The translations under genes and the position numbers were made by a program. The notes below the pieces were generated by a model, which did not search any database, had not been told where the DNA came from, and was given only the letters and a program-made list of their open reading frames with translations. From contig JBAZKM010000004.1 of the NCBI GenBank assembly GCA_041650805.1, positions 41,636-105,635 on the forward strand: a stretch of 64,000 bases of DNA, in the 5' to 3' direction. Each line of letters begins with the position of its first letter. Position 1 is the stretch's first letter. Below, one piece after another: positions 662 to 61,600 of this stretch. The stretch comes from Candidatus Omnitrophota bacterium. GTDB lineage: Bacteria > Omnitrophota > Gorgyraeia > 2-01-FULL-45-10.

Positions 662-1423
662 CTATACCTTCAACCGTCTGCCGTTATCGTCAAATATGGG
701 GAACCTTCCCAGCGAATGCTTCTGCAGGAAGTATTTACATGCCGTCGACAGGACGCCGAGGCCGTAAACGATGCTTCTCCGGAGATTTATGGATGAGGAC
801 TCCGAAGTATACCGGGACGGCGCCGTTATCTCGCCTATGCGATAGCCGAAGCGGAACGCCTGCAGCAGTATCTCGTTGTCGAATATGAAGTCGTCGGAGT
901 CCTCTTCGATAGGGAGGCTCAAAAGCACCTCTCTTGAGAAGGCCCTGTACCCGGTGTGGTATTCGGAAAGCTTCTGGCTTATTATATTATTTTCCGCAAG
1001 CGTGAGGAGGCGGTTCGCTACGTACTTATACAGCGGCATCCCGCCTTTCAGGGCGGCGTTGCCGAGTATGCGCGAACCCAGGACGACGTCGAACATCCCG
1101 GAGGTGATGAGGGCCGCCATCGGGGTTATGAGCTTCGGAGGATACTGGTAATCCGGGTGGATCATCACGACCACGTCGGCCCCCAGCCTCAGCGCCTCGC
1201 GGTAACATGTCTTCTGGTTACCCCCGTAGCCTTTGTTTTCATCGTGGACGAATATCTTCAGGTTCAGCCGCTTCGCTATCTCTACGGTCCTGTCGCGCGA
1301 ATGGTCATCCGTCAGTATTATCTCGTCTACTATGTTCTTCGGGATCTCCCCGTATGTCTTTTCGAGCGTCTTCTCCGCGTTGTACGCGGGGAGCACCGCC
1401 ACTATCTTCTTCCCGTCGAGCAT
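662..1423 (-). CDS. family 2 glycosyltransferase, dolichyl-phosphate mannose synthase-like
   Basis: KIVAVLPAYNAEKTL...ILTDDHSRDRT...DVVVMIHPDYQYPP GT2 signature. The start was moved to MLDGKK (ATG at 1421-1423) because the upstream part of the ORF is an alternate-frame artefact of the lpxD 3' end. Confidence 0.7.
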   Translation of the reverse strand: MLDGKKIVAVLPAYNAEKTLEKTYGEIPKNIVDEIILTDDHSRDRTVEIAKRLNLKIFVHDENKGYGGNQKTCYREALRLGADVVVMIHPDYQYPPKLITPMAALITSGMFDVVLGSRILGNAALKGGMPLYKYVANRLLTLAENNIISQKLSEYHTGYRAFSREVLLSLPIEEDSDDFIFDNEILLQAFRFGYRIGEITAPSRYTSESSSINLRRSIVYGLGVLSTACKYFLQKHSLGRFPIFDDNGRRLKV

Positions 1424-1425
1424 CT

Positions 1426-2430
1426 TTATCCTTTTTGTCCGCCGAGCGCTTTCTGCAGATACTTGAAGTTCTTCGTGAGCCATCCCAGGACGGCCATCTG
1501 CTTCTTCGTCTGGGCGATAGGGCGGGCCGGTATCCCCCACACCACCGTCCCCTTCTCTATATCGCCTATGACGCCGCTCTTCGCCCCTATCATCGACTCC
1601 TCGCCTATCCGGAGATTATCGGCGATGCCGACCTGTCCTCCGATCGTGACACCCTCTGCGATGACCGAGCTCCCCGCGACACCGCACTGCGCCGCCATGA
1701 GGACGTTCCTGCCCACCTTTACATTATGCGCCACCTGGCATAAGTTGTCGATCTTTGTGCCGGCTCCGATGACGGTATCGCTCAAAGAGCCCCTGTCGAT
1801 GGTCGTGTTCGCCCCGATCTCTACGTTCTCCTCTATTATCACCTGGCCCAGCTGCGGGAACTTATATATCTTTCCTTTTTCCTTAACGTAGCCGAACCCG
1901 TCTGCGCCCAGCACGACCCCGCTATGGAGCGTCACGTTGTCCTTCAGGACCACGTTTTCGTAAAGCGTGACGTTCGGATAGATGCGGCAGGAAGACCCTA
2001 TTTTACAATTCTTCTTTATGACCGTCTTGCTGTCTATAATAGCATTGTCGCCTATGGTGACACCGTCCTCTATGACCACGTTCGGACCCACCCATACGTC
2101 CTTGCCGAGACGTGCCGAACCGGATATGACCGCCGTTCCGTGGACGAACGCCTCCCTCTTCTCTTTTTGGAAGAACGCGTTATAGACCATTAGGAACGCG
2201 AATTTCGGATTTTTGACCCTTATGAGGCACTTCGCCGATCTGCGGCCGGCATGCCCGGTGAGTATGCAGGAGGCGAGCGTCTTTTCGGCTGCAGAGAGCC
2301 GTTCGTCGTCCGCTGCAAAGGTGAGGTCCCCGCGCTTGGCGGTCTCGATACCGCTCAGGCCCGTTATCTCTATATTACCGTCTCCCTCTACGACGCCGCC
2401 CACCAGAAGCGCAAGATCTTTTGTCCTCAT
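1426..2430 (-). CDS. lpxD: UDP-3-O-acylglucosamine N-acyltransferase
   Basis: Hexapeptide left-handed beta-helix repeats; N-terminal LpxD domain ([12 protein letters not shown]...[15 protein letters not shown]). 334 aa. Confidence 0.8.
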
Positions 2431-2522
2431 AAATATACCCGCCCTTTTTGAGGATGCTACCGATCGCGCTATTATACCTCTAAAGGTCTACAAATTCAAG
2501 ATTGGGTAACGGATAATCTCTT

Positions 2523-3806
2523 TTACCGGCTGGAGCTTTTTTGGTGAGAAAAAAACCTGTGGTAGCCATGCTGCTGCCCGTGCGGCCTCTGATGCCTCGG
2601 CCTGCCGTATTGCCTGGGATGTCCCGGCCGGAAACCGGAACTATGCTGGGGGTACGCCTGGAAGCTCTCCCGCGGCAGTTCGGGATGCGCGGATATCGGC
2701 AGCTGTGTCTTGATGAGCCGTTCTATGCTCTTGACATCGTCGCCCTGATCAGGCGTCGCGAAAGATATGGCATGCCCCGCATGCCCTGCGCGTGCCGTGC
2801 GGCCGATCCTGTGCACGTAATTCTCGGCGTCTTCCGGGAGGTCATAATTTATGACCACCTCTATCCCTGTCACATCTATGCCCCTGGCCGCTATATCGGT
2901 CGCGGCGAGCACCCTGTATTTACCGGACTTGAAACCGTCCAGCGCCTCGCGCCGCTGGGGAAGAGAGCGGTTAGAATGTATCTCCGCCGCGTTATGGCCC
3001 ATCGAGCGGATGAGCCTGGTGACCTTCATCGCGCCTATCTTAGTCCTTGTGAATAACAGGACGGGCCCGTGATACTGGTCTAAAAGTTTGCCGAGAAGCT
3101 TCTGCTTCGCTTCCCTCCTTACGATGAAGAGCTCCTGCGTGATCCCTTCGGCGGTAGTGCCGGACGGCGCTATCTCGACGTGGATAGGCAGCTTCATGTA
3201 TGAGGCGGCTATATGCACTATCTCCGGCGGTATCGTCGCCGAAAATAGCATCGTCTGCCTGTCTTTCGGGATGAATTTAAGGATGCGTTCTATCTGCGGC
3301 ATGAAGCCCATGTCGAGCATGCGGTCTGCCTCGTCCAGCACCAGGGCGTTAACATCGGCAAGCATCACCGTCCGCTGGCTCATGTGGTCTACCAGACGGC
3401 CCGGTGTAGCTATAAGGACGCGCGGATTTTGCCTTAACGCCTGCAGCTGCAGATGCATGGAGGCCCCGCCTATGAGAACTGCCGTCTTTATACCGAAGAG
3501 CGGCGCGAGCTTACGGAACGTTTCATCCACCTGGATCGCGAGTTCCCGGGTGGGCACAAGCACCAGACACCGTCCTTTCTTCTGCGCGAGCCGCTGTATA
3601 ATAGGTATGGCGAACGCGAGCGTCTTGCCCGTGCCTGTCTGCGCGACGGCTATGATGTCCTTGCCCTCGTTCACAACGGGTATGGCTTTATACTGGATGG
3701 GCGTCGGGACCGTGAACTTCATACGGTCCAGCGTCTCGAGTATCCTGGGCGCAATGCCCAGCCCGTAAAAAGAGGAACTTGCCGGCTGCGGATTTTGCTG
3801 TGTCAT
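2523..3806 (-). CDS. DEAD-box ATP-dependent RNA helicase (RhlE/DeaD-like) with Arg/Gly/His-rich C-terminal tail
   Basis: Motifs AQTGTGKT, DEAD (VLDEADRMLDMGF), SAT, HRIGRTARAG. Confidence 0.85.
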   Translation of the reverse strand: MTQQNPQPASSSFYGLGIAPRILETLDRMKFTVPTPIQYKAIPVVNEGKDIIAVAQTGTGKTLAFAIPIIQRLAQKKGRCLVLVPTRELAIQVDETFRKLAPLFGIKTAVLIGGASMHLQLQALRQNPRVLIATPGRLVDHMSQRTVMLADVNALVLDEADRMLDMGFMPQIERILKFIPKDRQTMLFSATIPPEIVHIAASYMKLPIHVEIAPSGTTAEGITQELFIVRREAKQKLLGKLLDQYHGPVLLFTRTKIGAMKVTRLIRSMGHNAAEIHSNRSLPQRREALDGFKSGKYRVLAATDIAARGIDVTGIEVVINYDLPEDAENYVHRIGRTARAGHAGHAISFATPDQGDDVKSIERLIKTQLPISAHPELPRESFQAYPQHSSGFRPGHPRQYGRPRHQRPHGQQHGYHRFFSHQKSSSR

Positions 3807-3827
3807 ATTATATTCGGCCCTCTGTCC

Positions 3828-4040
3828 TTACACCGTTTCCTGGACGACGCGCACATTTATCGCGCGGGGTCCTTTATCGGACTTTTCGACTTCGAATTCC
3901 AGGGCCTGGTCCTCATTCAGCGTCTCAAATTTTATGTCGACGAGGCTGTTCCTGTGAAAGAATACCTCCCTGCCGTCAGTATCATTGATGAAGCCGAATC
4001 CCCTGTCCCTGACCAGCTTCTTTATCTTGCCTTTATGCAT
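3828..4040 (-). CDS. cold-shock protein, CspA family
   Basis: 70 aa with the RNP motifs of the cold-shock domain (KGFGFI, VFFH). Sits immediately upstream of the DEAD-box helicase. Confidence 0.85.
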   Translation of the reverse strand: MHKGKIKKLVRDRGFGFINDTDGREVFFHRNSLVDIKFETLNEDQALEFEVEKSDKGPRAINVRVVQETV

Positions 4041-4281
4041 ATCGGTTCCTCCTTTTTATTACATTAATAACTGAATATGCCTGAAAAGATAAAAGCCGCA
4101 GGTTACATCAATCCTCACCTTGCGGCCAAGATCCATATTCTACCTTTAAGTCATAATCGATTGTACCCCTTTTTGTTACGTCTGTCCAGCACTATTTAAA
4201 AATAATTTAATACCACCTTTTCTCCGATTTCTGATATAATATGGTTCGATTCTATACAATCGAAAGGACGGCGATGACGCT

Positions 4282-5277
4282 ATGGAGATAAAAAAACTGG
4301 CGATACTGGTAGAAGGGGCGATCGAAGGCGACGGCGATGTCGATATCACGGGCCTGAGCGGCCTGGAGACCGCAAAATTGGGCGATCTGACGTTTGCGAT
4401 GGACGAGGAGCGTCTCGCTATAGCCGAAAAAGGCAACGCATCATGTATCCTCACCGGCCGGCTTACCAGGAAATCGACAAAACCGCTCATAAGGGTAGCA
4501 AATCCAAAGCTCTCATTCCTCATCATTTACAATAAATTCCATACCCCGGAGAGCAGAGGCGCGTTTGTCCACCCGACCGCCGTCGTTTCGCCGTCCGCCG
4601 GGATCGGCACCAACGTCTGGATAGGCGCGGGCGTGGTGATAGAAGATGGCGTAACCATAGGCGACCATGTGATAATCGAGAGCAATTCCGCGATAAAGAA
4701 AAATTGCTCTATAGGGTCATTTTGCCACCTCTACCCGAATGTCACCCTCTACGAGAATACTAAATTGAAGAAGAATGTCACCCTGCACGCCGGGGTCGTA
4801 ATAGGCTCTGACGGGTTCGGTTACGTGAAAGAAGGCGGTAAGATATATAAATTCCCCCAGCTGGGATCGGTCATAATAGAAGATGACGTCGAGATAGGGG
4901 CCAATAGCACGGTGGACAGGGGCTCCTTAAGCGATACCGTCATCGGCGCCGGCACGAAGATCGACAACCTCTGCCAGATCGCCCATAACGTGAAGATGGG
5001 CAGGAACAACCTGATAGCGGCCCAATGCGGCATCTCCGGGAGCACGACGATCGGGAACGATGTCACGATGGGAGGCCAGGCCGGGGTGGTCGATAATGTC
5101 AATGTGGGCGACAATGTTATGGTAGGCGCCAAGAGCGCCGTCATAGGCAGCATTGAGAAGAACTCTGTGGTGTGGGGGATACCGGCCCGCCCTATCGCCC
5201 AGACGAAGAAACAGATGGCCGTCCTGGGATGGCTCACCAAAAATTTCAAATCGCTCTCAAGGCTCGCCAGAGAATAA
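4282..5277 (+). CDS. lpxD: UDP-3-O-acylglucosamine N-acyltransferase, second paralog
   Basis: 331 aa, about 75% aa identity to the 1426-2430 copy, in inverted orientation. The last ~71 nt are essentially identical to the other copy. Confidence 0.8.
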
Positions 5278-5286
5278 AGAAGGGCA

Positions 5287-5649
5287 TCACTCTATACGAT
5301 CCGACCCCTCATCAGGGGTTGCGCCTGAAGCCGTTATCCAGTCCTTCAATTTTTTCTTATCCTCATCGGACATATCCAGAAACTCGAGGTGGAGTTTATA
5401 TATCTCCGCATCCTTTGTGTTGGGGTATATCGATGCAACTCTTGCGTTACAGAATACGGAGCCCGACTCTTCTCCCAGGATGAGCTCCAGGCCGACGGTC
5501 TCTTCGGTATTATAGTATTTCTGTATATTATATATGGCGACGCCGCCCAGGCTTATGTCGGCGGTCTCCGCATGTTCGTTATAAGGATGGTGTATCACTG
5601 CGGGGATGACTATCTTGAAACGCGGGTACTTTCTTCTCTCGATAGGCAT
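5287..5649 (-). CDS. PilZ domain protein (putative c-di-GMP receptor)
   Basis: RRKYPRFKI (RxxxR) and DISLGGVAI (DxSxxG) motifs. Confidence 0.6.
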   Translation of the reverse strand: MPIERRKYPRFKIVIPAVIHHPYNEHAETADISLGGVAIYNIQKYYNTEETVGLELILGEESGSVFCNARVASIYPNTKDAEIYKLHLEFLDMSDEDKKKLKDWITASGATPDEGSDRIE

Positions 5650-6141: not shown

Positions 6142-7416
6142 TCACAGTTCGCTCCATACTATTTTAAGATACACGATCCTGCCGTTACTATCCACCGCGG
6201 GAGGGAAGTAAAGGGGCGCTACGTTCGCAAACCTGTCATCATACATGTAATTTTTTGTATAGCCGCTCACCTTTTGATTGGTACTGGCATTGAAAGTCCC
6301 TACGCCGCCCCTCCTCTGCTGCGTCATGCCCCCATAAAGGGTCAGCGTTCCCTTGAGCACCGAGTCATAACCCTGCACCGAGAACGATGAGTTGAGGGCG
6401 ACTATATACGCATCGATCTCCATATTGAAAGGAGCGTTTATATCCACCAGCACGTTGTTTTGGGATACCAGGCCGAGGGCATCCGAGCTGTCCGGGTTTA
6501 TACGCGGGTCGTCATTGTACCTTAAGTTATTGACCACATATATGTTGTTATCCGTCCCCACCGTAAGCTGGCCGCTGAGCGTGCCCGATATATCCACATA
6601 ACCGCCGGAGACGAAGAGGGCCCCGTTCGGGGGAAGCGGCATATTCTGGCTTATCCAACCCTGCGCCGCATTAGTGACATTCATCGTCCCATCCGGCAGG
6701 AGCGTCATTATGGTATTCCCCGTAAGATAAACGCCGTTGGGCTGCTGCGCGGCGGCCTTCACGTCGTTGACAAAGGACGGCAGCTGGATGACCGGCGCAC
6801 CCAGAGTCAGCGAATCCTGGAAATCGGGATCGTCGGTCGGGGGCCCGCCGTGATAGTAATTTATGCTCGAGGCCGCGCTTGAGACCGCGCCTTCGAATAC
6901 GGGGCTTCCGGATATATTGAGCTGGTCGTTGCTGTATACCGGGCCTGTCAGCCTGTCTCCGGTCACGAACCATATCGGCTGCGAGCCCCACCAGAACATG
7001 AGATCTTCGCTGTTGCTCAAATACGCGTACCTGGCGCACGATATCTGCTTAAGCGTCAAAGACACCCTTTCGCTCACGTTGCGGTAAGTGCCTGTCGAAT
7101 CGAGCCGGTATGTCGGGAAGAGCCCGCCGCTCACCTGTGTCACCGTCACAGAATAACTCCCGGTGTTCCCTGCGGCTATGGTAAAAGTCCCGGAGAGGGA
7201 TGACGTGCTCCCTGACCTCAGGTCCATGAATTTTCTCGCCAGTCCCGCCTCGGCTATATAATACGCGCGCATGGTATTGCACGTCCTGTTGGCCATAGAC
7301 AGGCTGCTGTAAGCGATAGACGAGAAAGCGGTTATTATCAGCACCAGTAGGAAGACGAACATAAAGGTGTATATGATGGCAAACCCCTTATTGTCGCTTA
7401 CGGGCCTTTTACTCAT
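6142..7416 (-). CDS. PilX-like type IV pilus minor pilin / pilus assembly protein
   Basis: N-terminus KGFAIIYTFMFVFLLVLIITAFSSIA resembles the PilX_N hydrophobic segment. Lies downstream of two prepilin-type genes. Confidence 0.45.
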   Translation of the reverse strand: MSKRPVSDNKGFAIIYTFMFVFLLVLIITAFSSIAYSSLSMANRTCNTMRAYYIAEAGLARKFMDLRSGSTSSLSGTFTIAAGNTGSYSVTVTQVSGGLFPTYRLDSTGTYRNVSERVSLTLKQISCARYAYLSNSEDLMFWWGSQPIWFVTGDRLTGPVYSNDQLNISGSPVFEGAVSSAASSINYYHGGPPTDDPDFQDSLTLGAPVIQLPSFVNDVKAAAQQPNGVYLTGNTIMTLLPDGTMNVTNAAQGWISQNMPLPPNGALFVSGGYVDISGTLSGQLTVGTDNNIYVVNNLRYNDDPRINPDSSDALGLVSQNNVLVDINAPFNMEIDAYIVALNSSFSVQGYDSVLKGTLTLYGGMTQQRRGGVGTFNASTNQKVSGYTKNYMYDDRFANVAPLYFPPAVDSNGRIVYLKIVWSEL

Positions 7417-7943
7417 TTAGGCACATTCCTCAGGTTTATATAAGTGGACAGGGACCCGGATATGGTGCGGTTGCCTATTTGCCGGGAGACCGCTATATAG
7501 ATCCCCACCGTTTCGTTATCGGTGACACCCGCGGGTTCCCAAAAACGAAGCGTTACGGACGAACCCGGCGGAGCCGTATAGATTGTCTGCTGATTCGGCG
7601 ATTGCGTGGGGCTGGCGTAGATTATAGAATTACCGTTTAAAAAATAGCTCCGCACATTATCGTCGGTCCCGGTATACTGTATCCTGCTCCCGGCAGGCGT
7701 GACGACCGGGATGGTGAACGAGACGGCGCTGCGGAGCCCTACTATGCTGCCCTGCTCCGGATGGCCCCGGATGATCCTGGCGGCTATCGTATTTACATTC
7801 TGCTGCAGGTTTATCTCCGCCTCCTTGTCCCGGAAGACACCCTTCACCAGCATAAAGGCACCTATAGTGGATGCGAATATGAGAGTGACTATTACCGTAG
7901 AGACCAGGACCTCTATCGTGCTGAAGGCGCTTTTATTCCTCAT
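7413..7943 (-). CDS. prepilin-type N-terminal cleavage/methylation domain protein (PilW-like minor pilin)
   Basis: MRNKSAFSTIEVLVSTVIVTLIF class III signal peptide motif. Confidence 0.55.
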   Translation of the reverse strand: MRNKSAFSTIEVLVSTVIVTLIFASTIGAFMLVKGVFRDKEAEINLQQNVNTIAARIIRGHPEQGSIVGLRSAVSFTIPVVTPAGSRIQYTGTDDNVRSYFLNGNSIIYASPTQSPNQQTIYTAPPGSSVTLRFWEPAGVTDNETVGIYIAVSRQIGNRTISGSLSTYINLRNVPK

Positions 7944-7953
7944 GGCATATCTT

Positions 7954-8376
7954 TCAATTTGCCTGCGGGTCGTTCGCTATATAGGTGCCGCACTGCTCGT
8001 GCATGATCCTGCTTCTTCCCAGGATAGTCTCGTTCCAGCGTATATCCACTATGACCCTTTTGTAATAAGGGGAGTCGTTGTATACGGTGACCGTCTGGGC
8101 GCCCCTGAAATCGTCCGAATAATTGTCGGGTGTGCCTTTGGTGTCGATGCTCACCGCCGAGGTGCCGCCCGCTATGTCCGAGAACGGCCTCTTGCGCATA
8201 TTTTCGATGGTCGCCTGCGCCACATATATGGCCTGCGCCTTATGCTTCGCTATGGAACTGCTGATCGCCCCCACGAAGAAGAGGTCGAACGCGGCTACCC
8301 ATATCAGGGCTATTATCGCCATGCTGAGGACGGCTTCTACCATGGTAAAACCTTTGCCCTGCCCCCTTTTTATCAT
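7954..8376 (-). CDS. prepilin-type minor pilin (PilV/GspI-like)
   Basis: GKGFTMVEAVLSMAIIALI methylation motif. The start was chosen at the internal Met (MIKRGQGKGF). Confidence 0.5.
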   Translation of the reverse strand: MIKRGQGKGFTMVEAVLSMAIIALIWVAAFDLFFVGAISSSIAKHKAQAIYVAQATIENMRKRPFSDIAGGTSAVSIDTKGTPDNYSDDFRGAQTVTVYNDSPYYKRVIVDIRWNETILGRSRIMHEQCGTYIANDPQAN

Positions 8377-8389
8377 AAGGTATCCCGTA

Positions 8390-8920
8390 TCATCGGCCCT
8401 CTTTTTCCATCTTAATGAATTCGCCGTCTTTTTCCATATATCTTTCGCCATTTATTATCACATGTTTTTGTCCGGTTTTCCACTTTAATTCATCGATGCC
8501 CGCGGTTATCCTGTCTCTCACCCTTATCGCCGCCGGAAGATTTTTTTTGAACCACTCTTCCGTCTTTTCAAGGCGTCCTGTCCATTCCTCCCGGCGCCGC
8601 CTCTTCTCGGCCTCTTCCGCCTCTTTCTTCCGGTATGCGCTGTCGATACTCTGGGCCCTCATATTCCTGCGCCGCAATTCCTCGCGCAGCTTGCTATCGG
8701 TGATCTCCGGCCCGCCCGTCTTCTTATCAGAGGTCCCCGTCTTCGGGCACCATTCCGGGTTATTCATATTCACCATGTACTTCTTTTCGGCGAGCGGACA
8801 GCTGGCGCATGCAGGCGTGGCCTTTATGACATCGTTGTCCTCACTGGCGCATGTATGATACGGCGCGCATGCCAGTAAAACGGCGGAAAGCAGCGACATC
8901 CAGGTCTTTTTGTTAATCAT
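8390..8920 (-). CDS. secreted hypothetical protein, Cys-rich N-terminus plus charged coiled-coil
   Basis: Signal peptide MINKKTWMSLLSAVLLACA. No recognisable domain. Confidence 0.35.
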   Translation of the reverse strand: MINKKTWMSLLSAVLLACAPYHTCASEDNDVIKATPACASCPLAEKKYMVNMNNPEWCPKTGTSDKKTGGPEITDSKLREELRRRNMRAQSIDSAYRKKEAEEAEKRRRREEWTGRLEKTEEWFKKNLPAAIRVRDRITAGIDELKWKTGQKHVIINGERYMEKDGEFIKMEKEGR

Positions 8921-9698
8921 CGGTACTGCCGGATAGTTTCTCTTTTAAGATAACCACCAGATCACGATAGAAATGTATGCCGGCGATATTTTTGACAAAA
9001 TATGCATATGGATCATCCGGCCTTGCGGCCCCGGTATGGTTCATGCGGTCCGTAAGGCCTTTAAAGAATCCCATCGTGGTCTCCGGCCTGTCCGGATCTT
9101 TATCGCTTCCGCCCCATTCCGGGAAATATGACGTATTTGTGTCCTCCACGGAATATATGCCGCCGCCCTTCAGCAGGGGAAATAGCGTGGTGAAGGCCGT
9201 TATCACGTCCGCGCCCTTATGGCTTCCGTCGTCTATCACGATGTCCACGGAGCCCATCTCGCTAAAAACATATTCGAGGAACTTCCTGTCTGCCTGGCTG
9301 CCCCTGAATATCCTTATCCGCTCATCCTGCGGCAGTTCTTTTTCATGGATATCTATGGAATAGATCGTGCTGCGGGGAAAGTAATATTTCCACATGCGGA
9401 GGGAATTCCCGCCGGCTTTGGGGTTATCGTATCCGCCTGCGCCTATCTCCAGGATCTTCAGTTTTTTCTTTCTCAGCCCGTGGAAATACTTCATGTAATG
9501 CCTTACATAATCGTGGGCGGGCCCCTTGTCGGAGAAATTGATCACCGATAGCGCATTAAGGTCGGACGAAAATACCCTGGAGGGGATCGGCGCAAGAAAC
9601 TTTATATATGATCTCCTGATATGGTCTAACTGTACGGCGGTTAAGTTATTCTCAAAATACCGCTTAACCTTATTTAACTGGTTAGAGACGGTTTTCAT
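8913..9698 (-). CDS. class I SAM-dependent methyltransferase, CmcI/rhamnosyl-O-methyltransferase-like
   Basis: LEIGAGGYDNPKAGGNSLRMWKYYFP...SIDI...VIDDGSH pattern typical of CmcI-like sugar O-methyltransferases. Confidence 0.5.
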   Translation of the reverse strand: MKTVSNQLNKVKRYFENNLTAVQLDHIRRSYIKFLAPIPSRVFSSDLNALSVINFSDKGPAHDYVRHYMKYFHGLRKKKLKILEIGAGGYDNPKAGGNSLRMWKYYFPRSTIYSIDIHEKELPQDERIRIFRGSQADRKFLEYVFSEMGSVDIVIDDGSHKGADVITAFTTLFPLLKGGGIYSVEDTNTSYFPEWGGSDKDPDRPETTMGFFKGLTDRMNHTGAARPDDPYAYFVKNIAGIHFYRDLVVILKEKLSGSTDD

Positions 9699-9716: not shown

Positions 9717-11153
9717 TTATTCGCCCCTCATGAACGCCAGAAGACCTATCATATTCCGTTTTACGTCTTCCATCGAACGGATCCTTGAGATCCTTTTAAC
9801 TATATAAGAGGGACGAAAATAAAATTTTTTGTAGCTTTTGTCCAGGAGGTCTTCCAGCTGCCGGCGCGTCATCGAATCGGGGACATAGCCGACCTTCAGC
9901 GCGCTATGGTCCTCAAAATCGAATTCTTCGTCACCGCTGACCATATTGAATACCTCTGTCCCGGGAAAGAGCGCCAGCGAACTGAATGCCGCGTAATCCA
10001 GGTCGAGGTCGCATGCGAATTTTATCGTCTCCAGCCCTTCTTCGTACGTTTCGCCGGGTATACCGAAGATCATCGTGCCGTGCGCCTCGATACCCGCCTC
10101 CTTTGTCATCTTCACCGCATTCCTGGTCTGCTCCAGGGTGATCCCCTTCTTCATTATATCGAGGACCCTCTGCGAGCCGCTTTCTATGCCGAAAAGGAGG
10201 CGCCAGCATCCGGCCGCCTTCATCTTCTTCAGCATCTCTTCGTCCAGGCAATCCGCCCGCGCGTTGGCCGCCCATACGAGGTCGTACTTTCTCCTGATCA
10301 GCTCGTCGCATAACTGGAGGTTCCTGTCCCTGAACATGGTGAACGTCTCGTCATAGAAGGTCATATCCTTTATACCGTACCGCTTGACGAGTATGTCGAT
10401 CTCGTCCATTATACTCTTTACGCTCCTCTTTCTGACGACGCAGCTCGAATGGCAGAATATGCACCGGAACGGGCACCCCCTTGAACCTATTATGTCTATC
10501 GCCGGGAGCCGTTTGTAATTTGTGAGGGTGGGCCTGTACCTGTATATGTCGACACCGTCCCAATCCGGGAAGGGTATGTCGTCGATGTTCATTATGTAAT
10601 CGGGCCCGCCGTTATCGACGACCTTCGAGGTCCCGGCGTCTTTCCACGCGAGCCCGTTTATGCCGTCCAGCGGCTTATTGCCGCCGAGGCGCTCGACCAG
10701 GCCAAGCAGCGCATTTTCGCCGTCTCCGTATACCATATAATCTATGAACGGGCTGTCCTTAAAGCAGTTGGTCTTCCATCCGTTCGCGTGCGGCCCGCCG
10801 ATCACTATCCCGGTGCCGGGGAACCTCTTCTTCGTCTTCTCTATCATGAGCTGATCATCGCGCCATCCCGCGCTGTACGTAGATATCCCGAAAAGGCCGT
10901 AGCCGCCCGTCTCCATCTCCCGGAATATCTCTTCTTCCGTCGCGAACATCCCGTTCAATATCCTGGCTTCGTGGCCCGCCCTTTTCAATGCGGCGCTCAG
11001 ATACATCAACCCGAGCGGCGGGAAAGACCCCATTATCCCCTGCCCCTCCACCTTAAAGATCTTTCTTATGAAGCCCAGCCGGTCCTTGGTGGAAAAGAAC
11101 GGGTTGGTCATCTTCGAAAAATCCCAGGGGGTCGTAAAGAGGAGCACTTTCAT
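9717..11153 (-). CDS. B12-binding domain radical SAM protein
   Basis: N-terminal cobalamin-binding Rossmann region, then CPFRCIFC (CxxxCxxC) radical SAM cluster motif. Start set at MKVLLF. Confidence 0.75.
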   Translation of the reverse strand: MKVLLFTTPWDFSKMTNPFFSTKDRLGFIRKIFKVEGQGIMGSFPPLGLMYLSAALKRAGHEARILNGMFATEEEIFREMETGGYGLFGISTYSAGWRDDQLMIEKTKKRFPGTGIVIGGPHANGWKTNCFKDSPFIDYMVYGDGENALLGLVERLGGNKPLDGINGLAWKDAGTSKVVDNGGPDYIMNIDDIPFPDWDGVDIYRYRPTLTNYKRLPAIDIIGSRGCPFRCIFCHSSCVVRKRSVKSIMDEIDILVKRYGIKDMTFYDETFTMFRDRNLQLCDELIRRKYDLVWAANARADCLDEEMLKKMKAAGCWRLLFGIESGSQRVLDIMKKGITLEQTRNAVKMTKEAGIEAHGTMIFGIPGETYEEGLETIKFACDLDLDYAAFSSLALFPGTEVFNMVSGDEEFDFEDHSALKVGYVPDSMTRRQLEDLLDKSYKKFYFRPSYIVKRISRIRSMEDVKRNMIGLLAFMRGE

Positions 11154-26444: not shown

Positions 26445-26561
26445 ATAAACTAATCTCTCTTTTGTGGCCCGCCTTCGCAATCAACTGTCAAACGAATCGG
26501 TGCTTCGGCGGGCTCATCCGCCGAAGCCTTCTGTCGTCTGCCTGTTGTTGGCGAAGGCGGA
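26445..26561 (-). repeat. 117-nt conserved structured element immediately 3' of tRNA-Val (copy A)
   Basis: Near-identical to 55246-55362 apart from 2-3 substitutions in the first 20 nt and a few at the distal end. Outer stem CCGCCTTCG/CGAAGGCGG; inner hairpin GGCTTCGGCGG-ATGAGC-CCGCCGAAGC. Confidence 0.6.
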
Positions 26562-26637
26562 TGGTGGGCGGAACAGGGCTCGAACCTGTGACCTCTTGAA
26601 TGTAAGTCAAGCGTTCTACCAGCTGAACTATCCGCCC
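26562..26637 (-). tRNA. tRNA-Val (anticodon TAC)
   Basis: 76 nt. GGGCGGATAGTTCAGCTGGTAGAACGCTTGACTTACATTCAAGAGGTCACAGGTTCGAGCCCTGTTCCGCCCACCA. Confidence 0.85.
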
Positions 26638-53953: not shown

Positions 53954-54624
53954 ACCCCGCATCCAGCAAAAGACCCAAATATATAGTGGTGACGGCCGGA
54001 CCGACCCGGGAGAAGATAGACCCGGTCCGTTTCATATCCAACTACTCGACGGGGACGTTCGGGTACGAGATCGCCGGGGAGGCGCGCCGCAGGGGCCATC
54101 GCGTAACGCTCGTGAGCGGGCCTGCATGCCTCAAGAGGCCGGCAGGCGTCAGGCGGATCATGGTCGAGAGCGCGACGGAGATGCGTTCTGCGCTCTCGGG
54201 GGAGTTCAAAAAGGCCGACTGCGTGATAATGGCGGCGGCCGTATCCGATTGGAGGCCGCTGTCGAGCCGGTCGAGAAAGATGAAGAGGGCCACCGGCAGG
54301 AAGATCGTGCTAGAGATGGCCGAGAACCCGGACATACTTGCAGGGCTCGGCCGTAAAAAAGGGAATAAGGTGCTGGTAGGGTTTGCCCTGGAGACCGAGC
54401 ATATGTATACAAATGCCCTGAAGAAATTAAGAGAGAAGAATCTCGACCTTATAGTCGCGAACAGGTGTTCAAAGGGCGGCACGGCTTTCGGTCCCGGGAA
54501 GACGGATATAGCGATCATCGACAGGCGGGGAGGCCGGACCTCTGCGCGCGGGAGATCGAAGCGCGAACTCGCCAAAATTATTCTTGACAAGGTTCTTGAC
54601 CGCACGTATAGTGGCAAATTATGA
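53950..54624 (+). CDS. coaB: phosphopantothenate--cysteine ligase, separate gene
   Basis: VVTAGPTREKIDPVRFISNYSTGTFG. GTGA overlap with the coaC stop. Confidence 0.7.
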   Translation: MNPASSKRPKYIVVTAGPTREKIDPVRFISNYSTGTFGYEIAGEARRRGHRVTLVSGPACLKRPAGVRRIMVESATEMRSALSGEFKKADCVIMAAAVSDWRPLSSRSRKMKRATGRKIVLEMAENPDILAGLGRKKGNKVLVGFALETEHMYTNALKKLREKNLDLIVANRCSKGGTAFGPGKTDIAIIDRRGGRTSARGRSKRELAKIILDKVLDRTYSGKL

Positions 54625-55061
54625 GGATGATGAAAAGTTCGCGGGGTTTCACTATAATAGAGGTGGTAGTCGTCGTCGCGGTATTCCTTGCGATCATCTC
54701 GATATTGGGACCGTTTGTGCGCATGGTCAAAGACCGGGCCAGCGCGATACAATGCGAAAATAATCTGAGGCGCCTCAGCATCGCGCTGCATACGTACGCC
54801 TCCGAACACGAAGATGCGTTCCCGCCGGATCTCGGGGCGCTCTACCCGGATTACGTCGGGGACCAGAAGGTATTCGACTGCGCGGCGAGCGGCTCTTTCG
54901 GCACACCCGAAAAGCCCGACTATTCGTACGCCCCCGGCCTGACGGAATCGTCGCTTCTCAAGACGCCGATCGTCGAGGACGCCGCCGGTAACCACGGCAG
55001 GAAAGGGAAGAATATCCTCAGGGTGGACGGTTCCGTAGAGTGGGCGGGTAGAAGATTTTAA
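54621..55061 (+). CDS. prepilin-type N-terminal domain pseudopilin with DUF1559 (H-X9-DG) domain
   Basis: GFTIIEVVVVVAVFLAIISIL methylation motif. HGRKGKNILRVDGSVEW C-terminal motif. Confidence 0.6.
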   Translation: MRMMKSSRGFTIIEVVVVVAVFLAIISILGPFVRMVKDRASAIQCENNLRRLSIALHTYASEHEDAFPPDLGALYPDYVGDQKVFDCAASGSFGTPEKPDYSYAPGLTESSLLKTPIVEDAAGNHGRKGKNILRVDGSVEWAGRRF

Positions 55062-55168: not shown

Positions 55169-55245
55169 GGACGCGTAGCTCAGTTGGTTAGAGTGCTTCC
55201 TTGACATGGAAGAGGTCACAGGTTCGACCCCTGTCGCGTCCACCA
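55169..55245 (+). tRNA. tRNA-Val (anticodon GAC)
   Basis: GGACGCGTAGCTCAGTTGGTTAGAGTGCTTCCTTGACATGGAAGAGGTCACAGGTTCGACCCCTGTCGCGTCCACCA. Confidence 0.85.
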
Positions 55246-55362
55246 TCCGCCTTCGTCGACAACAGGCAGACGACAGAAGGCTTCGGCGGATGAGCCCGCC
55301 GAAGCACCGATTCGTTTGACAGTTGATTGCGAAGGCGGGCCACAAAAGAGAGATAAGTTCAT
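55246..55362 (+). repeat. 117-nt conserved structured element immediately 3' of tRNA-Val (copy B)
   Basis: Near-identical reverse complement of 26445-26561. Same position relative to a tRNA-Val 3' end, and the same nested stems. Confidence 0.6.
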
Positions 55363-55620: not shown

Positions 55621-58600
55621 ATGTCAGACGCTAGATCTGGTAGTACTCCTAATGTGATCTTGAATAGACGCCCATTCAGGGTGACGATCGCCATTGTCAC
55701 CCTGTGGGCGTTTTTACTTAATATTGTAGCATACGATCTGGCCTGGGCTGCCGGAACGCCTACAGAGCTTACTAGCGTCGGCCCTGATAGAGCCGGCGGC
55801 CCGGGCGTTGTGAAGGAACTGGACGCTTCGACATTTTCATTACCCCAGTATCTCGGTTCTATCCGCGACTCCTGGTCCCCTAAACCCTATACCCTATACC
55901 CTATACCCAATACTATAATCCACATCCAAGACGCCCACTGCAACTATTATGCCCAGCACAAGATAAAAGAGATAATAGAGTATCTGAATAGAGAATACGG
56001 CGTAGATACCGTAAATCTCGAGGGTGGGGCGATGGGTTACGACCTGTCCCCGTTTACGGATATACGCGACAAAGATATCCGCGAAAAGGCGACCGACCAT
56101 TTCGTGAAAGAGGGTTTGGTGAACGGCGCAGAGTACTTCGCCATCAACAACCCGGAGAAGATAGCGCTTTGGGGGGTAGAGGATGCCCGGCTCTATGTCG
56201 ATAACCTCAATGTCTACAGGAGTTCAGCCGTCCGCAAGGCCGAGATCGAGAAGCATATTAAATCGCTCAACCACATCATCAACAACTTAAAACCGAAGAT
56301 ATATTCGAAAGAGCTTCTCGAGTTCGACCTGGCATATTCCTCATACAAGGCGCACAATTCGGAATTCAAAGATTACCTGTCATACCTCATAACGAAAGCA
56401 AAAGAGAGGGCCATCAACGTAAAACAATTTACAAATATCTACATCCTAAGCCGGACGCTCGGCGAGGAGGGGAAGGTCGATTTTAAAAGAGCGAATATCG
56501 AACGCGACGTTATGATAGATGCGCTCGGGAAACGGCTTTCGAAAAGCGCTCTCGAGGAACTTGTGGTGAAGACGGTTGAATTCAAGGCGGAGAGGATATC
56601 GCAAAAGGAATTTTACGCGTACCTCACAGGTAAGGCGAAAGTCGCCGGCTTGGACATGGACGGCTTCCCCGAACTCCGCAGGTATATTATCTATATCTCT
56701 ATGTACGAAGCGGTCGATAAGCCGAGCGTCATGGAAGAGATAGATGCCCTGGAAGCGAAGCTTCTGGAAGGCCTATATCGGAACGAGGAAGAGAGGACCT
56801 TAAGCCGTCTTTCGAAGAACCTGGCGTTATCGAAGAACATATTCGACATCTCGCTTACCAGGGACGATTACCGTTACTACAAGAAGAACGAGGCGTCGTT
56901 CGATATGCGTAACTACGCCGTGTTCATCGAGCGGGAAGCGCCTGCGCGCGGTATCACGGCAAAGCTCGACAACGATATAGCCCACCTCGACAACTATAGG
57001 CGGGAGATGGCGAAGTTCTACGAGTATTCATTCAAGCGCGATGAGGCGTTCATACGGAATATTAAGTTAGGGGGTATAGGGTATAGGGTATCGGGTATAG
57101 TAACCCGAAAACCAGGGGCCGCGATCCTCGTGACCGGTGGGTTCCATTCCGAGAACCTCGCAGAACTATTCAAGAAGAACGATATCGCCTACGTATCGAT
57201 CATGCCGAACTTCAGATCCGGCGACGAGTATGAGTGCCCGTACTTCAAGATCCTTTCAGGCGAGAAGAATATCAGGATAAAAGAGTCATTACCGGCGGTC
57301 CTCACCGGCATGCTCCCGGTACCGGATCAGCTGAATCCGGCGGTGATGAGAGAGCTCGAAAAAACCCAAAAACCGTTGGGCGCGGGAAGGATGAGGATGC
57401 AGGGGGAGCATGCATTTACACAGTTTTTGACGCGCATAGAACCGCTCCTTCTTATGTCTGAGGCCCTGTTGCCCATAATAATAGACAGGGCCATACAAAG
57501 ATATGAGAGGACGAAAGAGCCGCAGGTTATCAATATAGGGATCGTGGGGGCAGGATATGGCCAGGAACCCGTATCCGTGGCGATCGCCCTTGATAGAAAG
57601 ATAAGAAGTATGCTTGAGGACCGGCGTCTTCCCGGGGATTCTGTGAAGCTTGCAGTCCATATCATGAGCAGGCCGTCCCCCATGCTCGATAAGCTTAGAG
57701 ATAATGGAATAAGGTATCCGGCAGATTCGATCGCGCGACAGATCGCTCTCGGCAATATCTCAGAGACCGAACGGGACAGGTATTTTGAAGATACGGGAAC
57801 AGGGTCAAGGCGCACCCAGGCCCTGAACGATATCATGAAGTTTTATGAAGTCGATCTTTTGGACGATCCGCAGGCAGAGGTGCCGCCTCTCGATGCGCTA
57901 TTGGTCCACAATATCCTGCAGTATCTGATGCCGGGTGATATGCAAAGTGCGCAAGCGGCATTCGGATATCTGGGTTCAATGGTAAAGCCGGGCGGGATCA
58001 TTTCAGTCACGTCCCCGGAAGGAACCGCCGACAGATACGTTAAGGCAGCGTATGATGAGATGTTTAGCGGCCGCGGCGGATATGAGCAAGCGAAATTTGA
58101 AGGGTTACCCGTAGAGACAGTATTTTTTGTGAAGAAGACACCGCCCGCGCCGCAGGCCGGGTTCGGTCGCCTTGAGGTGATCTCAGGCGTAGCGGTGCTG
58201 ACGGCAGCGGCAGCGACTTTCCACGCCGCAGGCATCGCCGCGGCGCTCGTTGTCGGGATCGCCGGCGCGCTCGCAGCAGCGCTCTTATTCAGGTATCTCA
58301 ACCGGGCAACGTCGGAAGAAAAGACGGCCACACCGACACCTCATGAGGCCATGATAAGAGAATTATGGGGAAGCGTTCCGCGACCGATCGGTGATGCGGA
58401 ATTGCGAAAAGCCATCATAGAAAGATCTTTTTCTGGTGAAGCAGCCATGCGATGGGGTGCTGACACGTTGTCGGACCTTATCGATTTTAATAAATCGAGG
58501 GCAGGGACGCTATATATTACGGCTATCATAGAAGCCAGTTTACCCAAGTTAGGGATAATGATACCGGACAATTTTATGTACGGCCCTGCAATGACACCGG

Positions 58601-61600
58601 AAGAGATAAGATCGGCAAAAGAACGCGCAGAACTCCAGGCCATCGAGAATAGGATATCTCGTTTTACCGATGAATTAAGCGCTCTATTTGCAGACCTTGA
58701 TCGCATCCGCGGGCTTATCGAAAAAGACCTGATAACGGCGGAGCAGTTAAAAACAGCCACAAGATTATCCGGCGGAAATATGAAAATAGCCTGTGAGACG
58801 TTTGCCGCATTGGAAGGTTCGATAAGAAGCAGACAGGATATAGAAAATTTAATAAGATCGGCCGAGCGCAATAACAACATATTTATCATAAATGCGGCCA
58901 ATTTTGGTATTAATGACACCTTCAGCTGGCTTGCCCGCCATAGAGAATTTATCAATCGTTATGGGACTAACGGTATAGCTGTTTTAGGGCAGGTGCTGCG
59001 CTCCGGCCGCGTTCTTTTCGGTTCAAATCAATCTGAGAAGATCTGTGATTTTCTGGAAAAAAATGCAAGATATGTCGAATTATACGGGATGGAATATTTA
59101 TGTACTGCGGTAGCCGTATTAAATGATGAGCAGCTTCAGAATATGAGCAGCCCTCGTCGCATTAATATCTTCGAACCTACCCTCAACATCGGCAAGGTTA
59201 TCACAGAGGATAGCATGCTTAACGGTGCAAGGGTATTCTTCGAAGACCTCGTGGCAGCAAATAATGAAAGCGATAGATTGAAGCCAGAGGCCCAATTTAA
59301 CGAGTCTATAATAAGAACGATTAATGAAAATACCATGTCGCGGTACGGTCTTGACAAGATGCTTATCCTAAGCAGATCCCACAACTTAACAGCAGTGGCT
59401 ATTTATTTTACGAGAATAAGGCCTGTGGTAGATAAGGTCGGCATACAGGCGTTTATCGACGCAGTAGAAAATAAGGGCGAGATATCCGCAGATCTCGTGG
59501 CGGCTATCCCGGAACTTCTCAGGGTAGATCTGACCTTTGCCGGCGCGGGCCATCAAAAGGCTCAAGAATATGCCAACTATATATTGGGCACGATAGCGAA
59601 AAGGTCTACCGATGCTCTGCAGGCGCTTGTAGAAGCCACTACAGATACAGATGATGATATAAAAAGAGGCGCATATTCAGTTTTGGATACGGTTATGCCA
59701 AATCTCGGCGCTACTCTCAGATTTCACGGCGACATAGGGCCGGTAGGGCGCAAGATCGTCGTAGAATTTCTGGCCATGTCGGACCTTGAAAGATTAAGCC
59801 CATACAGGTTATATCTGTACATAGGGCGATTGGCCGAGAACGGGAATACTATAGACCGTATAAAGAACGCGGATAGACGCAGGCAGGCGATAAATAATGT
59901 CATAAACAAGGCCGACAGGGATTATGGAAACTTCACAAAAAGCGTGTACTATGGAGGAAAGACCGGGGATTATTCAATGTATGTCGGCCTTCTCAGCATG
60001 CTTTCCGATGAGGATTTTGAGAAAGACGTTCATGATATAGCCGCGGCCCTAAACGTCACCGCAAAAGACAGGAGTATAACTGATACATTGAGCGAGATCG
60101 ATGGAAAAGTCATCACACAACCTGTGAACGTTCAATATGTAAGCGCGTTCGATTTCGAAACAAAAAAGACGGAACTGGCGCTGCCGGACGATTTAGATAT
60201 CGAATTCAAAAATATGATCAGCACGATTTTCGGGTCAGCTGGAGAAGCGGATATTGACACCATCCTGGCGAGGATCACCGCCGTCAAGGCGAGTGTTGAT
60301 GCCCTGGAAGGAAGGGATAAAGCGGAAGTGACCGCGTTTTTCAACGGTAATAATGTACCTGATAACCTCCGGGCGCAGTGGAATACGGAAGATCCTAAAA
60401 GACACGAAACCGCTAAAGTAAATATCAAAAATTTTCTATACACCAGGATGGATATTTCAGACGAAGAGAAGACGGTATTGTTCCTGAAAGTTTTTGAACA
60501 CATGGGCGCGGAATTATTGCGAAAATACATAACTCCCGGGGCCGAGCTTTCCCCGGATGAGAGGAACCTTATCTTTTCGATGCTGAGAGAGGCGGACAGA
60601 CATCTTGCTGATACCATGCAGGAAATGGGGCTTGGCGCGCTGGCCGACAACCTAAAGAAGAAACCCGAATGGAAACTGATGAAGACATTACAGGGTAAGA
60701 TAAAGACGACAGTTGACGGTAATGTAAGGTCTGGCAAAAAAATAGAGCTGGTTTTCAGGGCAAAGAACCTTCTTACCCTCTATCAGGGGGCCTACTCGGG
60801 GACGTGTTTCGGAGACCGCCCTTACGATATAGCGCGACCGGACCTTTTTGTCGTCACTATATTAAGTAACGGAGAGCTTGCGGGTTCTGTCCTGTTCAAT
60901 ATACAAGGCAATAAATTGATAATGCTCGGTTTTGACCCGTCAGAAGCGCTGATGTGCGGCCTTGATGACACAAAGAGAAATGAGCTCGTAGACCATATCA
61001 TGGCCGAGATATTCAGTTTCACCAAAGCGCGTATCGTGGATCAGGACGGCAAAATTACGGCAGAGAACGATTATGAGTTATTGATCACTACAGAAGCAGG
61101 AGGCCTATCGAACAGGGACAAGGTGCAGGATTATATAATAAGTGAATACGTAACCGGGGGTAAGGTAAGAGTGGACCGGAGGACCTATCATCCACTATAT
61201 CAATACAGCGTTACTTCGGCGCAAAAGGCGAAGACAAGAAATGTAAAACCGAAAATGATCAAAACCACGCCTTCACCCGAGGCAGGATTCGGCGGTCTTG
61301 AAGTTATGACAGGCATTGCGGTATTGGGGGCGGCAGTGGCCGCCTTCCACGCCGCAGGCATCGCCGCGGCGCTCGCCGTCGGGATAGGCGGCGCGCTCGC
61401 AGCAGTGCTCTTGTTCAGATACCTCAGCCGCAATATTTCAGTGTCTCCGGCCGTTACCGCATCTACTAAGGGGACATCCCAGAGCAGTATGACCTGGGAC
61501 CCCATCGGATATTTTGACCTTGTAAAGCGTTTTGGAGGGCATGATTATGGCGCCGATCCGGCAGCGGACAAGATGCTGCTTGAACAGACAGGGAAGTGGT

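Follow-up and report, generated by a model that had tools for sequence, protein, structure and literature searches.

The tufA and tufB genes of Salmonella and E. coli undergo concerted evolution by gene conversion (PMC5485169). They lie in inverse orientation on one chromosome and exchange sequence non-reciprocally in continuous tracts, and the intermediates can in principle also give inversions. A pair of lpxD genes in a metagenome-assembled genome of Candidatus Omnitrophota, an uncultured bacterium, resembles them in orientation, in location on one chromosome and, very probably, in this mode of exchange. However, the tuf copies are ~99% identical, lie 762 kb apart and are kept homogeneous over whole genes, whereas the lpxD copies are ~70% identical, lie 1.85 kb apart and belong to old clades. 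Only a 71-nt patch of lpxD is homogenised, which points to sporadic conversion, unlike the concerted evolution of tuf.

The second comparison concerns the gene products. Francisella uses the LpxD1/LpxD2 pair for temperature-dependent remodelling of lipid A (PMC3545938), and an LpxD1/LpxD2 pair is also known in Leptospira (PMC10248169). As in these bacteria, two bona fide LpxD paralogs are found in the one genome here. In the window and in several relatives, cold-shock genes adjoin them, an arrangement compatible with use that depends on temperature. In Francisella the two enzymes share 34% identity and differ in origin, and both their regulation by temperature and their specificity for acyl chains have been measured. 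In contrast, the Omnitrophota paralogs are 69% identical, and their link to cold shock is one of gene order, known from the genes alone.

The window, that is, the whole stretch of 64,000 nt that was analysed, contains the following features at this locus.

662..1423, minus strand: GT2 glycosyltransferase (Pfam Glycos_transf_2; gene call of 253 aa)
1426..2430, minus strand: lpxD-A, A-type paralog, 334 aa (TIGR01853, 339.7 bits; Pfam LpxD and Hexapep; NCBI MFA5146458.1)
1475..1545, minus strand: tract copy within lpxD-A, codons 296-319, identical to 5167-5237 at 70 of 71 nt
2523..3806, minus strand: DEAD-box RNA helicase, 427 aa (Pfam DEAD and Helicase_C)
3828..4040, minus strand: cold-shock-domain protein (csp), 70 aa (Pfam CSD, 65 bits)
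4041..4281, no strand: intergenic region that separates csp from the divergent lpxD-B gene, with back-to-back promoter-like hexamers
4282..5277, plus strand: lpxD-B, B-type paralog, 331 aa (TIGR01853, 339.6 bits; NCBI MFA5146461.1)
5167..5237, plus strand: tract copy within lpxD-B, codons 296-319, covering the final turn of the beta-helix and the beginning of the C-terminal helix
5287..5649, minus strand: PilZ-domain gene (Pfam PilZ), convergent with lpxD-B

The initial annotation had read the ORFs at 1426-2430 (-) and 4282-5277 (+) as inverted lpxD copies bracketing csp and the DEAD-box helicase gene, and gene calls and Pfam matches bear this out. Both proteins pass the curated equivalog cutoff of the NCBIfam model TIGR01853 (242.5 bits), and both carry the N-terminal LpxD uridine-binding domain (PF04613) followed by the hexapeptide left-handed beta-helix (PF00132). 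In a phmmer alignment with E. coli LpxD (3eh0), the QIAHNV of LpxD-B coincides with the E. coli QIAHNV that holds the catalytic histidine (E. coli His239), and LpxD-A has QVAHNV at this position. The alignment of LpxD-B reaches residue 335 of 341, so that the C-terminal helical extension is present, and the tract corresponds to approximately residues 300-325 of the E. coli protein. By these sequence features, LpxD-A and LpxD-B are LpxD paralogs, with a predicted activity as UDP-3-O-acylglucosamine N-acyltransferases.

The start codons of the two inverted genes are 1.85 kb apart, with csp and the helicase gene in between. lpxD-A follows the csp-DEAD pair on their strand at a distance of 92 nt, and lpxD-B and csp point away from each other. 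Candidate promoter hexamers in the intergenic region, which are pattern matches to the consensus, lie at 4188..4160 (-) and 4231..4260 (+). The helicase is most similar to CshA and RhlE among NCBIfam models, each below its equivalog cutoff. Since the GT2 start codon lies only 2 nt past the lpxD-A stop codon, these two genes are probably co-transcribed. At the other end of the locus, 9 nt separate the stop codons of lpxD-B and the PilZ gene, and a pattern search found no terminator-like site between them.

In a pairwise alignment, lpxD-A and lpxD-B share 70% of their nucleotides and 69% of their amino acids, somewhat below the value of about 75% first estimated for both. The divergence is not uniform along the genes. 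A near-identical stretch of about 71 nt with a single mismatch had been described near the 3' ends, and it exists in inverted orientation: 44 identical nucleotides, one mismatch and 26 identical nucleotides, that is, 70 of 71 nt against the 70% background. Its coordinates needed correction, because 1467-1537 and 5169-5239 are out of register (22 of 71 positions match); the proper ones are 1475-1545 and 5167-5237. Elsewhere in the two genes no perfect match exceeds 17 nt, the next longest being 14 and 12 nt, and none of 20,000 permutations of the variable sites of the alignment reached the observed identity run. The effect is clearest at silent positions. The same codon is used at 19 of the 21 amino-acid-identical degenerate codons in the tract versus 52% elsewhere (binomial P = 2.3e-4), and the longest run of same codons has a permutation p of 0.011. 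pS and pN are 0.11 and 0 in the tract and 0.645 (dS about 1.5) and 0.21 outside it.

As a cross-species control, the same 72 alignment columns were compared among 28 Omnitrophota lpxD genes. lpxD-A and lpxD-B are 97% identical in DNA there, whereas all other non-identical pairs are at most 83% identical, and neither lpxD-A nor lpxD-B is more than 78% identical to any other gene. This segment is the most conserved protein part of the C-terminus, and its motif ([25 protein letters not shown]) is kept everywhere despite DNA identity of at most 83%. All 31 other pairs of an A-type with a B-type gene have a pS of 0.48-0.97 at the tract codons. No 17-mer of the tract occurs in the other 83 loci compared.

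The paralogs themselves are old. In a neighbour-joining tree built without the tract, lpxD-A and lpxD-B fall in different clades, each common to other genomes, and they are sisters in 0 of 300 bootstrap replicates. lpxD-A groups with L076_933, L079_845 and L077_3690, and the nearest relatives of lpxD-B are in L032 and L033 together with L077_6279; three genomes have one A-type and one B-type copy each. By this sequence comparison the A/B paralogy goes back to two ancient clades. The genes thus group by paralog type outside the tract and by genome inside it. Because the tract is near-identical only within this genome while the paralogs otherwise belong to old and separate clades, recent intragenomic conversion is indicated. 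The tract is, very probably, the footprint of a recent, short, non-reciprocal ectopic gene conversion between the two lpxD copies of one chromosome, from lpxD-B to lpxD-A.

Of the two explanations first offered for the near-identical tails, gene conversion or an embedded element, it is the former that the distribution of identity and the ancient clades favour. As to the polarity, V297 and I300 of the LpxD-A tract, in place of the A-type I/L at 297 and T/Y at 300, are seen in 0 of the 12 other A-type proteins and in 78% and 51% of B-type proteins, respectively, and LpxD-A retains the A-type residue G286 immediately upstream. Since B-type residues thus lie inside the tract and an A-type residue was kept just before it, lpxD-B was most likely the donor and lpxD-A the recipient, with codons 296-319 overwritten. 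This polarity rests on a handful of diagnostic amino-acid states (V297, I300 and G286), as the tract DNA matches its nearest A-type and its nearest B-type genes about equally well (74-78%). The segment, where the beta-helix ends and the C-terminal helix begins, hardly varies in protein sequence across the family. Few residues of LpxD-A would therefore have changed, and the near-invariance would also explain why the event was tolerated. Closer orthologs by which to date the event were sought, but no relative of LpxD-A closer than 71% was found among 5.8 billion proteins.

A second Omnitrophota genome, in an independent JGI assembly (L057), has an lpxD pair that is also inverted and in which two patches, of 88/89 nt and of 38/38 nt, lie elsewhere in the gene (permutation, 0 of 20,000). 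The directly oriented pairs of L076 and L077 have no such patches, a contrast between inverted and direct orientation that stands at two pairs versus two. The long contigs P0113, P0020 and P0048 gave no further A/B pairs, their loci being single-copy or differently organised. Orthologs in two different genomes, L046 and L048, match at all but one position of an 89-nt run in the region of the catalytic site; long runs are thus not exclusive to same-genome pairs.

The exchange may have proceeded by RecA-mediated short-patch repair or by replication template switching between nearby inverted repeats. Efficient RecA-dependent exchange usually needs roughly 20-30 bp of identity. The flanks of the tract are ~70% identical and the longest perfect matches in the rest of the genes stay below this requirement, which counts against an exchange of this kind. 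In quasipalindrome mutagenesis, template-switch repair gives short patches with sharp boundaries that make diverged inverted arms identical, and microhomology suffices. Such a template switch fits the flanks of 70% identity and the restriction of patches to the two inverted pairs; however, its arms are classically tens of nucleotides apart, whereas the lpxD arms are 1.6-3.6 kb apart. Whichever the route, the tract would be a textbook footprint of ectopic gene conversion that leaves the way lipid A is made unchanged. Two genomes show that conversion can still patch paralogs that have diverged by ~25-30%, which bears on divergence as a shield against homogenisation. The tract also calls for caution with paralogs from metagenome-assembled genomes, both in phylogenies and in the quality control of assemblies.

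The surroundings of the pair allow a wider but doubtful reading. csp divergent from lpxD recurs in L034, L051, L077 and L079, and the linkage of csp and the DEAD-box helicase gene to lpxD also recurs in relatives. A literature search returned nothing relevant on a csp/DEAD/lpxD linkage. The linkage hints at a temperature-linked remodelling of lipid A of the kind carried out by LpxD1 and LpxD2 in Francisella. Taken further, the A/B pair with csp and the helicase gene might be a module, conserved in Omnitrophota, that remodels the N-linked acyl chains of lipid A in response to cold. lpxD-A would be expressed together with csp and the helicase gene, and the promoter of lpxD-B would stand back to back with that of csp. 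Occasional short conversions in the C-terminal helix could then be tolerated, if not favoured, since both enzymes would need one and the same surface for acyl carrier protein docking and trimerisation, possibly in mixed trimers. The module in this full form is unlikely. The recurring order of csp, helicase gene and lpxD is a testable lead that Omnitrophota may tune lipid A acylation with temperature, as Francisella does. In L084, a related genome, a third, canonical lpxD is found in a bamA-skp-lpxD-lpxC-fabZ cluster.

Conversion from lpxD-B to lpxD-A has to be weighed against other explanations of the identity. One is constraint at the nucleotide level, in which selection holds an embedded RNA or regulatory element identical in both genes, for example the target of a shared small RNA or an antisense site. 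The same 71 nt do occur in both mRNAs, and since only 9 nt, lacking any terminator-like site, part the stop codon of lpxD-B from that of the PilZ gene, overlapping convergent transcripts are plausible. In an antisense variant, transcription of the PilZ gene would read through into lpxD-B at its 3' end, and the resulting RNA would also pair in trans with the lpxD-A mRNA. However, orthologs do not conserve the DNA of this segment, as seen in their identity and pS values, and the edges of the tract match nothing but codons. Compared with shuffled sequence, the tract has no excess of RNA structure (z of -0.04, +1.0 and +1.3; from -0.24 to +1.3 when both strands and the flanks are included), and an Rfam search of 1300-5500 gave nothing at E <= 1, so that the embedded RNA element was rejected. 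The patches of L057 lie elsewhere in the gene, which argues against a site-specific element, and conversion would still be required to make the identity in the first place. An embedded element is therefore very improbable, and this part of the initial proposal is not supported.

Alternatively, the metagenome assembler or a polishing step may have homogenised two similar segments. The contig comes from a MEGAHIT k141 metagenome assembly, and there is essentially one data set for this organism: its sequence is known from records of two lengths, 203,739 and 203,818 nt, which may share the same reads. Records of both lengths encode exactly the same two proteins. Each lpxD copy has a complete, intact reading frame, the flanks on either side of the tract are distinct, and equal coverage of the paralogs would be expected, so that there would be no basis for correcting one copy toward the other. 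The patches of the same kind in the independent assembly of L057 also speak against an artefact, for which the chance appears small indeed.

A third explanation does without any exchange and assumes strong purifying selection on the protein together with a codon bias common to one genome. The strong conservation of the C-terminal segment in protein agrees with it, and so does the somewhat lower overall pS of same-genome pairs. However, the excess of identical degenerate codons was measured against other amino-acid-identical codons of the very same gene pair, and in this segment pS is 0.60 for the pair within L076 and 0.82 for the pair within L077. Nor would selection and codon bias place B-type residues in LpxD-A that are absent from every other A-type protein. 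This explanation is thus extremely unlikely.

The chance is next to nil that the tract is the crossover site of a reversible switch flipping csp, the helicase gene and both lpxD bodies: a 71-nt inverted repeat (44 nt perfect) does surround a 3.6-kb segment, and by the sequence a crossover would keep both lpxD frames and swap only the final 15-18 codons together with the genes that follow, but the product would leave local gene relationships unchanged, with no obvious regulatory gain, and the A-type copy of L077, though oriented differently, does not have the arrangement that this inversion would produce. Hughes in 2000 reportedly linked tuf gene conversion to chromosomal inversion in Salmonella, and inversion through the copies, as raised in the initial annotation, is mechanistically possible; evidence for it did not appear. 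The inverted repeats, which lie inside coding sequence, have no adjacent recombinase, because the genes called in 662-5649 encode GT2, LpxD, DEAD, CSD, LpxD and PilZ proteins, and no recombinase family was seen out to ~8 kb. Likewise, a search of 5.8 billion proteins and a cluster look-up for LpxD proteins with hybrid tails, as expected of the inverted state, yielded only the two parental sequences, each 90% cluster having one member.

The shared DNA also accounts for a minor feature of the locus. Duplicated alternate-frame ORFs starting [13 protein letters not shown] had been reported and do exist, at 662-1540 (-) and 5172-5483 (+). The former, the 'MGDTGPP' ORF, was considered as new coding sequence and rejected; it is the GT2 gene plus an upstream in-frame extension to a GTG at 1540, and gene calling puts the start at the ATG at 1423. 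The latter runs antisense to the PilZ gene. Both are treated as trivial by-products of the DNA that the two lpxD genes share.

The two lpxD genes lie on opposite strands around a cold-shock gene and an RNA helicase gene. Their contig, about 204 kb long, belongs to a Candidatus Omnitrophota metagenome-assembled genome (ENA ERZ27247363 k141_736944; NCBI proteins MFA5146458.1 and MFA5146461.1).

Gene order around the lpxD pair (window positions)
662-1423, minus strand, GT2 glycosyltransferase; start codon 2 nt past the lpxD-A stop
1426-2430, minus strand, lpxD-A
2523-3806, minus strand, DEAD-box RNA helicase
3828-4040, minus strand, csp (cold-shock-domain protein)
4282-5277, plus strand, lpxD-B; divergent from csp and convergent with the PilZ gene
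5287-5649, PilZ gene; convergent with lpxD-B

Both products exceed the cutoff of TIGR01853 (an NCBIfam equivalog) by about 100 bits, and each combines the LpxD N-domain with hexapeptide repeats and contains the catalytic His known from E. coli LpxD. Only 9 nt separate the stops of lpxD-B and the PilZ gene (5277-5287), with no terminator-like hairpin detected in between; the two transcripts probably overlap at their 3′ ends. Runs of minus-strand ORFs at 6142-8451 and 54621-55061, accompanied by a DUF4900 protein, have prepilin-like N-termini (e.g., ...GFTMVEAVLSMAII, ...AFSTIEVLVSTVIV, ...GFTIIEVVVVV); next to the PilZ gene, they resemble a cluster of type IV pilins or pseudopilins.

In a codon-aware alignment, lpxD-A and lpxD-B are 70.0% identical in DNA and 69.3% in protein, less than the roughly 75% given in the initial annotation. 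The near-identical tract of about 71 nt reported there is real (70/71 bases match, in exact blocks of 44 and 26 nt on either side of a single mismatch), but it lies at 1475-1545 (minus strand) and 5167-5237 (plus strand); the positions first assigned to it are displaced by 8 nt in one copy and 2 nt in the other, so that the strings they delimit are out of register and agree at 22 of 71 bases. Its 44- and 26-nt blocks are among the few exact inverted matches of at least 20 nt in the 64-kb window, where only one is longer, a 96-nt repeat unrelated to the tract. The tract codes for residues 296-319, the last β-helix turn and the beginning of the C-terminal helix (in E. coli LpxD, residues 300-325 or so).

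These residues are the same in both proteins, so that synonymous sites decide whether the match could have arisen by chance. The same codon is used at 19 of the 21 degenerate codons for identical amino acids in the tract, against 52% elsewhere in the pair (binomial P = 2.3e-4), and the longest same-codon run gave a permutation p of 0.011. By the Nei-Gojobori method, pS is 0.11 and pN 0 in the tract, versus 0.645 (dS about 1.5) and 0.21 outside it. When alignment-variable sites were permuted in the manner of GENECONV, the observed run was not reached in any of 20,000 shuffles. The strongest control is the DNA comparison across Omnitrophota, with 28 and later 31 lpxD genes collected from public genomes and metagenomes. 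A 25-residue protein motif of the tract segment is kept in all of them. Over the 72 tract columns, lpxD-A and lpxD-B share 97% of their DNA (68.5% elsewhere), versus 53-78% between either and all other genes and at most 83% for all other distinct pairs. Tract pS was 0.48-0.97 in all 31 other comparisons of A-type with B-type genes. No 17-mer of the tract occurs in the other fetched loci, and the only run of at least 29 nt that another pair has in these columns is one that partly overlaps them, at columns 867-896.

Residual similarity as the source of the tract was ruled out, since the paralogs are too old for a 70/71 match. In a neighbor-joining tree built with the tract removed (300 bootstraps), lpxD-A groups with L076_933, L079_845 and L077_3690 (A-type), and lpxD-B with L032, L033, L037, L077_6279, L076_10001, both L057 copies, L001 and others (B-type); the two were sisters in none of the 300 bootstraps. 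One copy of each type surrounds csp and the helicase gene in three genomes, namely the window, L076 (CAYHAE010000015.1) and L077 (a Logan contig). Because of these two clades and three genomes, the A/B duplication is older than the three lineages. Among 5.8 billion proteins, LpxD-A has no relative above 71% identity. A 70/71 match between such old paralogs must therefore reflect a recent transfer of sequence between them. Gene conversion, one of the two explanations first offered, is thus very likely the origin of the tract, as the identity spike, the permutations, the pS contrast and the separate clades all support it.

The donor was most probably lpxD-B, to judge from diagnostic residues. 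V297 and I300, present in both window proteins within the tract, are found in 78 and 51%, respectively, of the 106 B-type proteins compared, and neither occurs in any of 12 other A-type proteins; LpxD-A keeps the A-type residue G286 just upstream. DNA identity of the tract to the nearest A-type and B-type relatives does not discriminate the donor. Since the encoded region is almost invariant across the LpxD family, few LpxD-A residues would have been altered, and the conversion was probably close to neutral for this protein.

The longest perfect matches that the genes share elsewhere measure 17, 14 and 12 nt, shorter than the minimum that RecA usually needs for efficient exchange. There are therefore two candidate routes: the exchange could have occurred by RecA short-patch repair, or by replication template switching between the nearby inverted arms. 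Ectopic gene conversion is best studied in the inversely oriented tufA/tufB genes of Salmonella (PMC5485169). The tract shows the same pattern, although the lpxD flanks are merely about 70% identical. The finding adds one more case of a known process, in an enzyme family that is itself known.

The other explanation first offered, an embedded regulatory or antisense element, is not supported as the cause of the tract. Folding of the tract with its flanks is no more favorable than that of shuffled sequence on either strand, and there is no Rfam match. Nor does its site seem to be special. A second Omnitrophota genome, L057 (JGI Ga0172381_10000166), has two convergent B-type lpxD genes around an OmpA/LysM-like gene, and they share patches at other gene positions: 88/89 nt at codons about 162-191 (6638-6726 and 9211-9299) and 38/38 nt at codons about 281-293 (6995-7032 and 8905-8942), reached by 0/20,000 permutations. 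The direct-orientation A/B pairs of L076 and L077 have no patches (permutation p = 0.45 and 0.90). With patches in two inverted pairs and in neither of two direct pairs, the contrast is only an anecdote. It would be compatible with selection that removes deletions between direct repeats, and also with template switching that acts specifically on inverted repeats. Long runs are not unique to same-genome pairs, as L046 and L048, orthologs from different peat metagenomes in a clade about 78% identical overall, share a run of 89 nt, broken by a single mismatch, in the region of the catalytic site. Codons 240-295 of the window pair (about 1546-1710 and 5002-5166) have a pS of 0.42, against 0.57-0.89 in other A-type/B-type pairs and about 0.70 in the first 200 codons of the same pair; pN is not reduced there. 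This weak hint may reflect older, eroded exchanges or shared codon bias.

Inversion of the cold-shock module through the two copies, also proposed initially, is possible but unsupported. A crossover in the tract would invert 1546-5166 with both reading frames kept, and would exchange only the last 15-18 codons and the downstream neighbors; csp and the B body would still be divergent, with the A body still downstream of the helicase gene. There is no recombinase gene near the pair and no hybrid-tail LpxD protein in public data. The A-type copy of L077 has the opposite orientation, in an arrangement that is not the product expected from such a crossover. The duplicated alternate-frame ORFs exist in both copies, as follows automatically from the shared DNA; that of copy A is an upstream in-frame extension of the GT2 gene (called start, 1423).

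The linkage to cold-shock genes is the sole lead of broader interest. Of 34 other A/B-type lpxD genes, 8 have csp and/or a DEAD-box helicase gene no more than 3 kb away, and in L034, L051, L077 and L079 a divergent csp lies 122-313 nt upstream of lpxD. This csp-lpxD micro-synteny (3828-4281 in the window) is conserved, often with an adjoining helicase gene. Promoter-like hexamers, pattern matches only, are arranged back to back between csp and lpxD-B, with a further one upstream of lpxD-A. In Francisella, temperature-dependent expression and chain-length preference of LpxD paralogs are established (PMC3545938), and in Leptospira such paralogs are implicated in thermal adaptation (PMC10248169); gene order suggests that the A/B pair may be similar. 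Omnitrophota can carry three LpxD lineages, since the related genome L084 has a more distant LpxD (342 aa, 44% identical) at 1007-2035 in a canonical bamA-skp-lpxD-lpxC-fabZ-lpxI cluster and a B-type lpxD at 10001-10990 beside lpxB. Given that cluster, and that lpxC, fabZ, lpxI and lpxB are absent from the 64-kb window, the A-type and B-type genes may be accessory copies.

As for other repeats, the 96-nt exact inverted repeat (26453-26548 and 55259-55354) starts in each copy about 13 nt past the 3′ end of a tRNA-Val gene (tac, 26562-26637, minus strand; gac, 55169-55245, plus strand). The trailer has no Rfam match and folds into an extended hairpin (-54.5 kcal/mol, z = -6.9). The repeat may represent a tRNA trailer or terminator that was duplicated, or else another homogenized segment of the genome. 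Short exact direct repeats near the window end comprise three copies of 31 nt (58219-58249, 61345-61375 and 62569-62599) and two copies of 48 nt (61338-61385 and 62562-62609).
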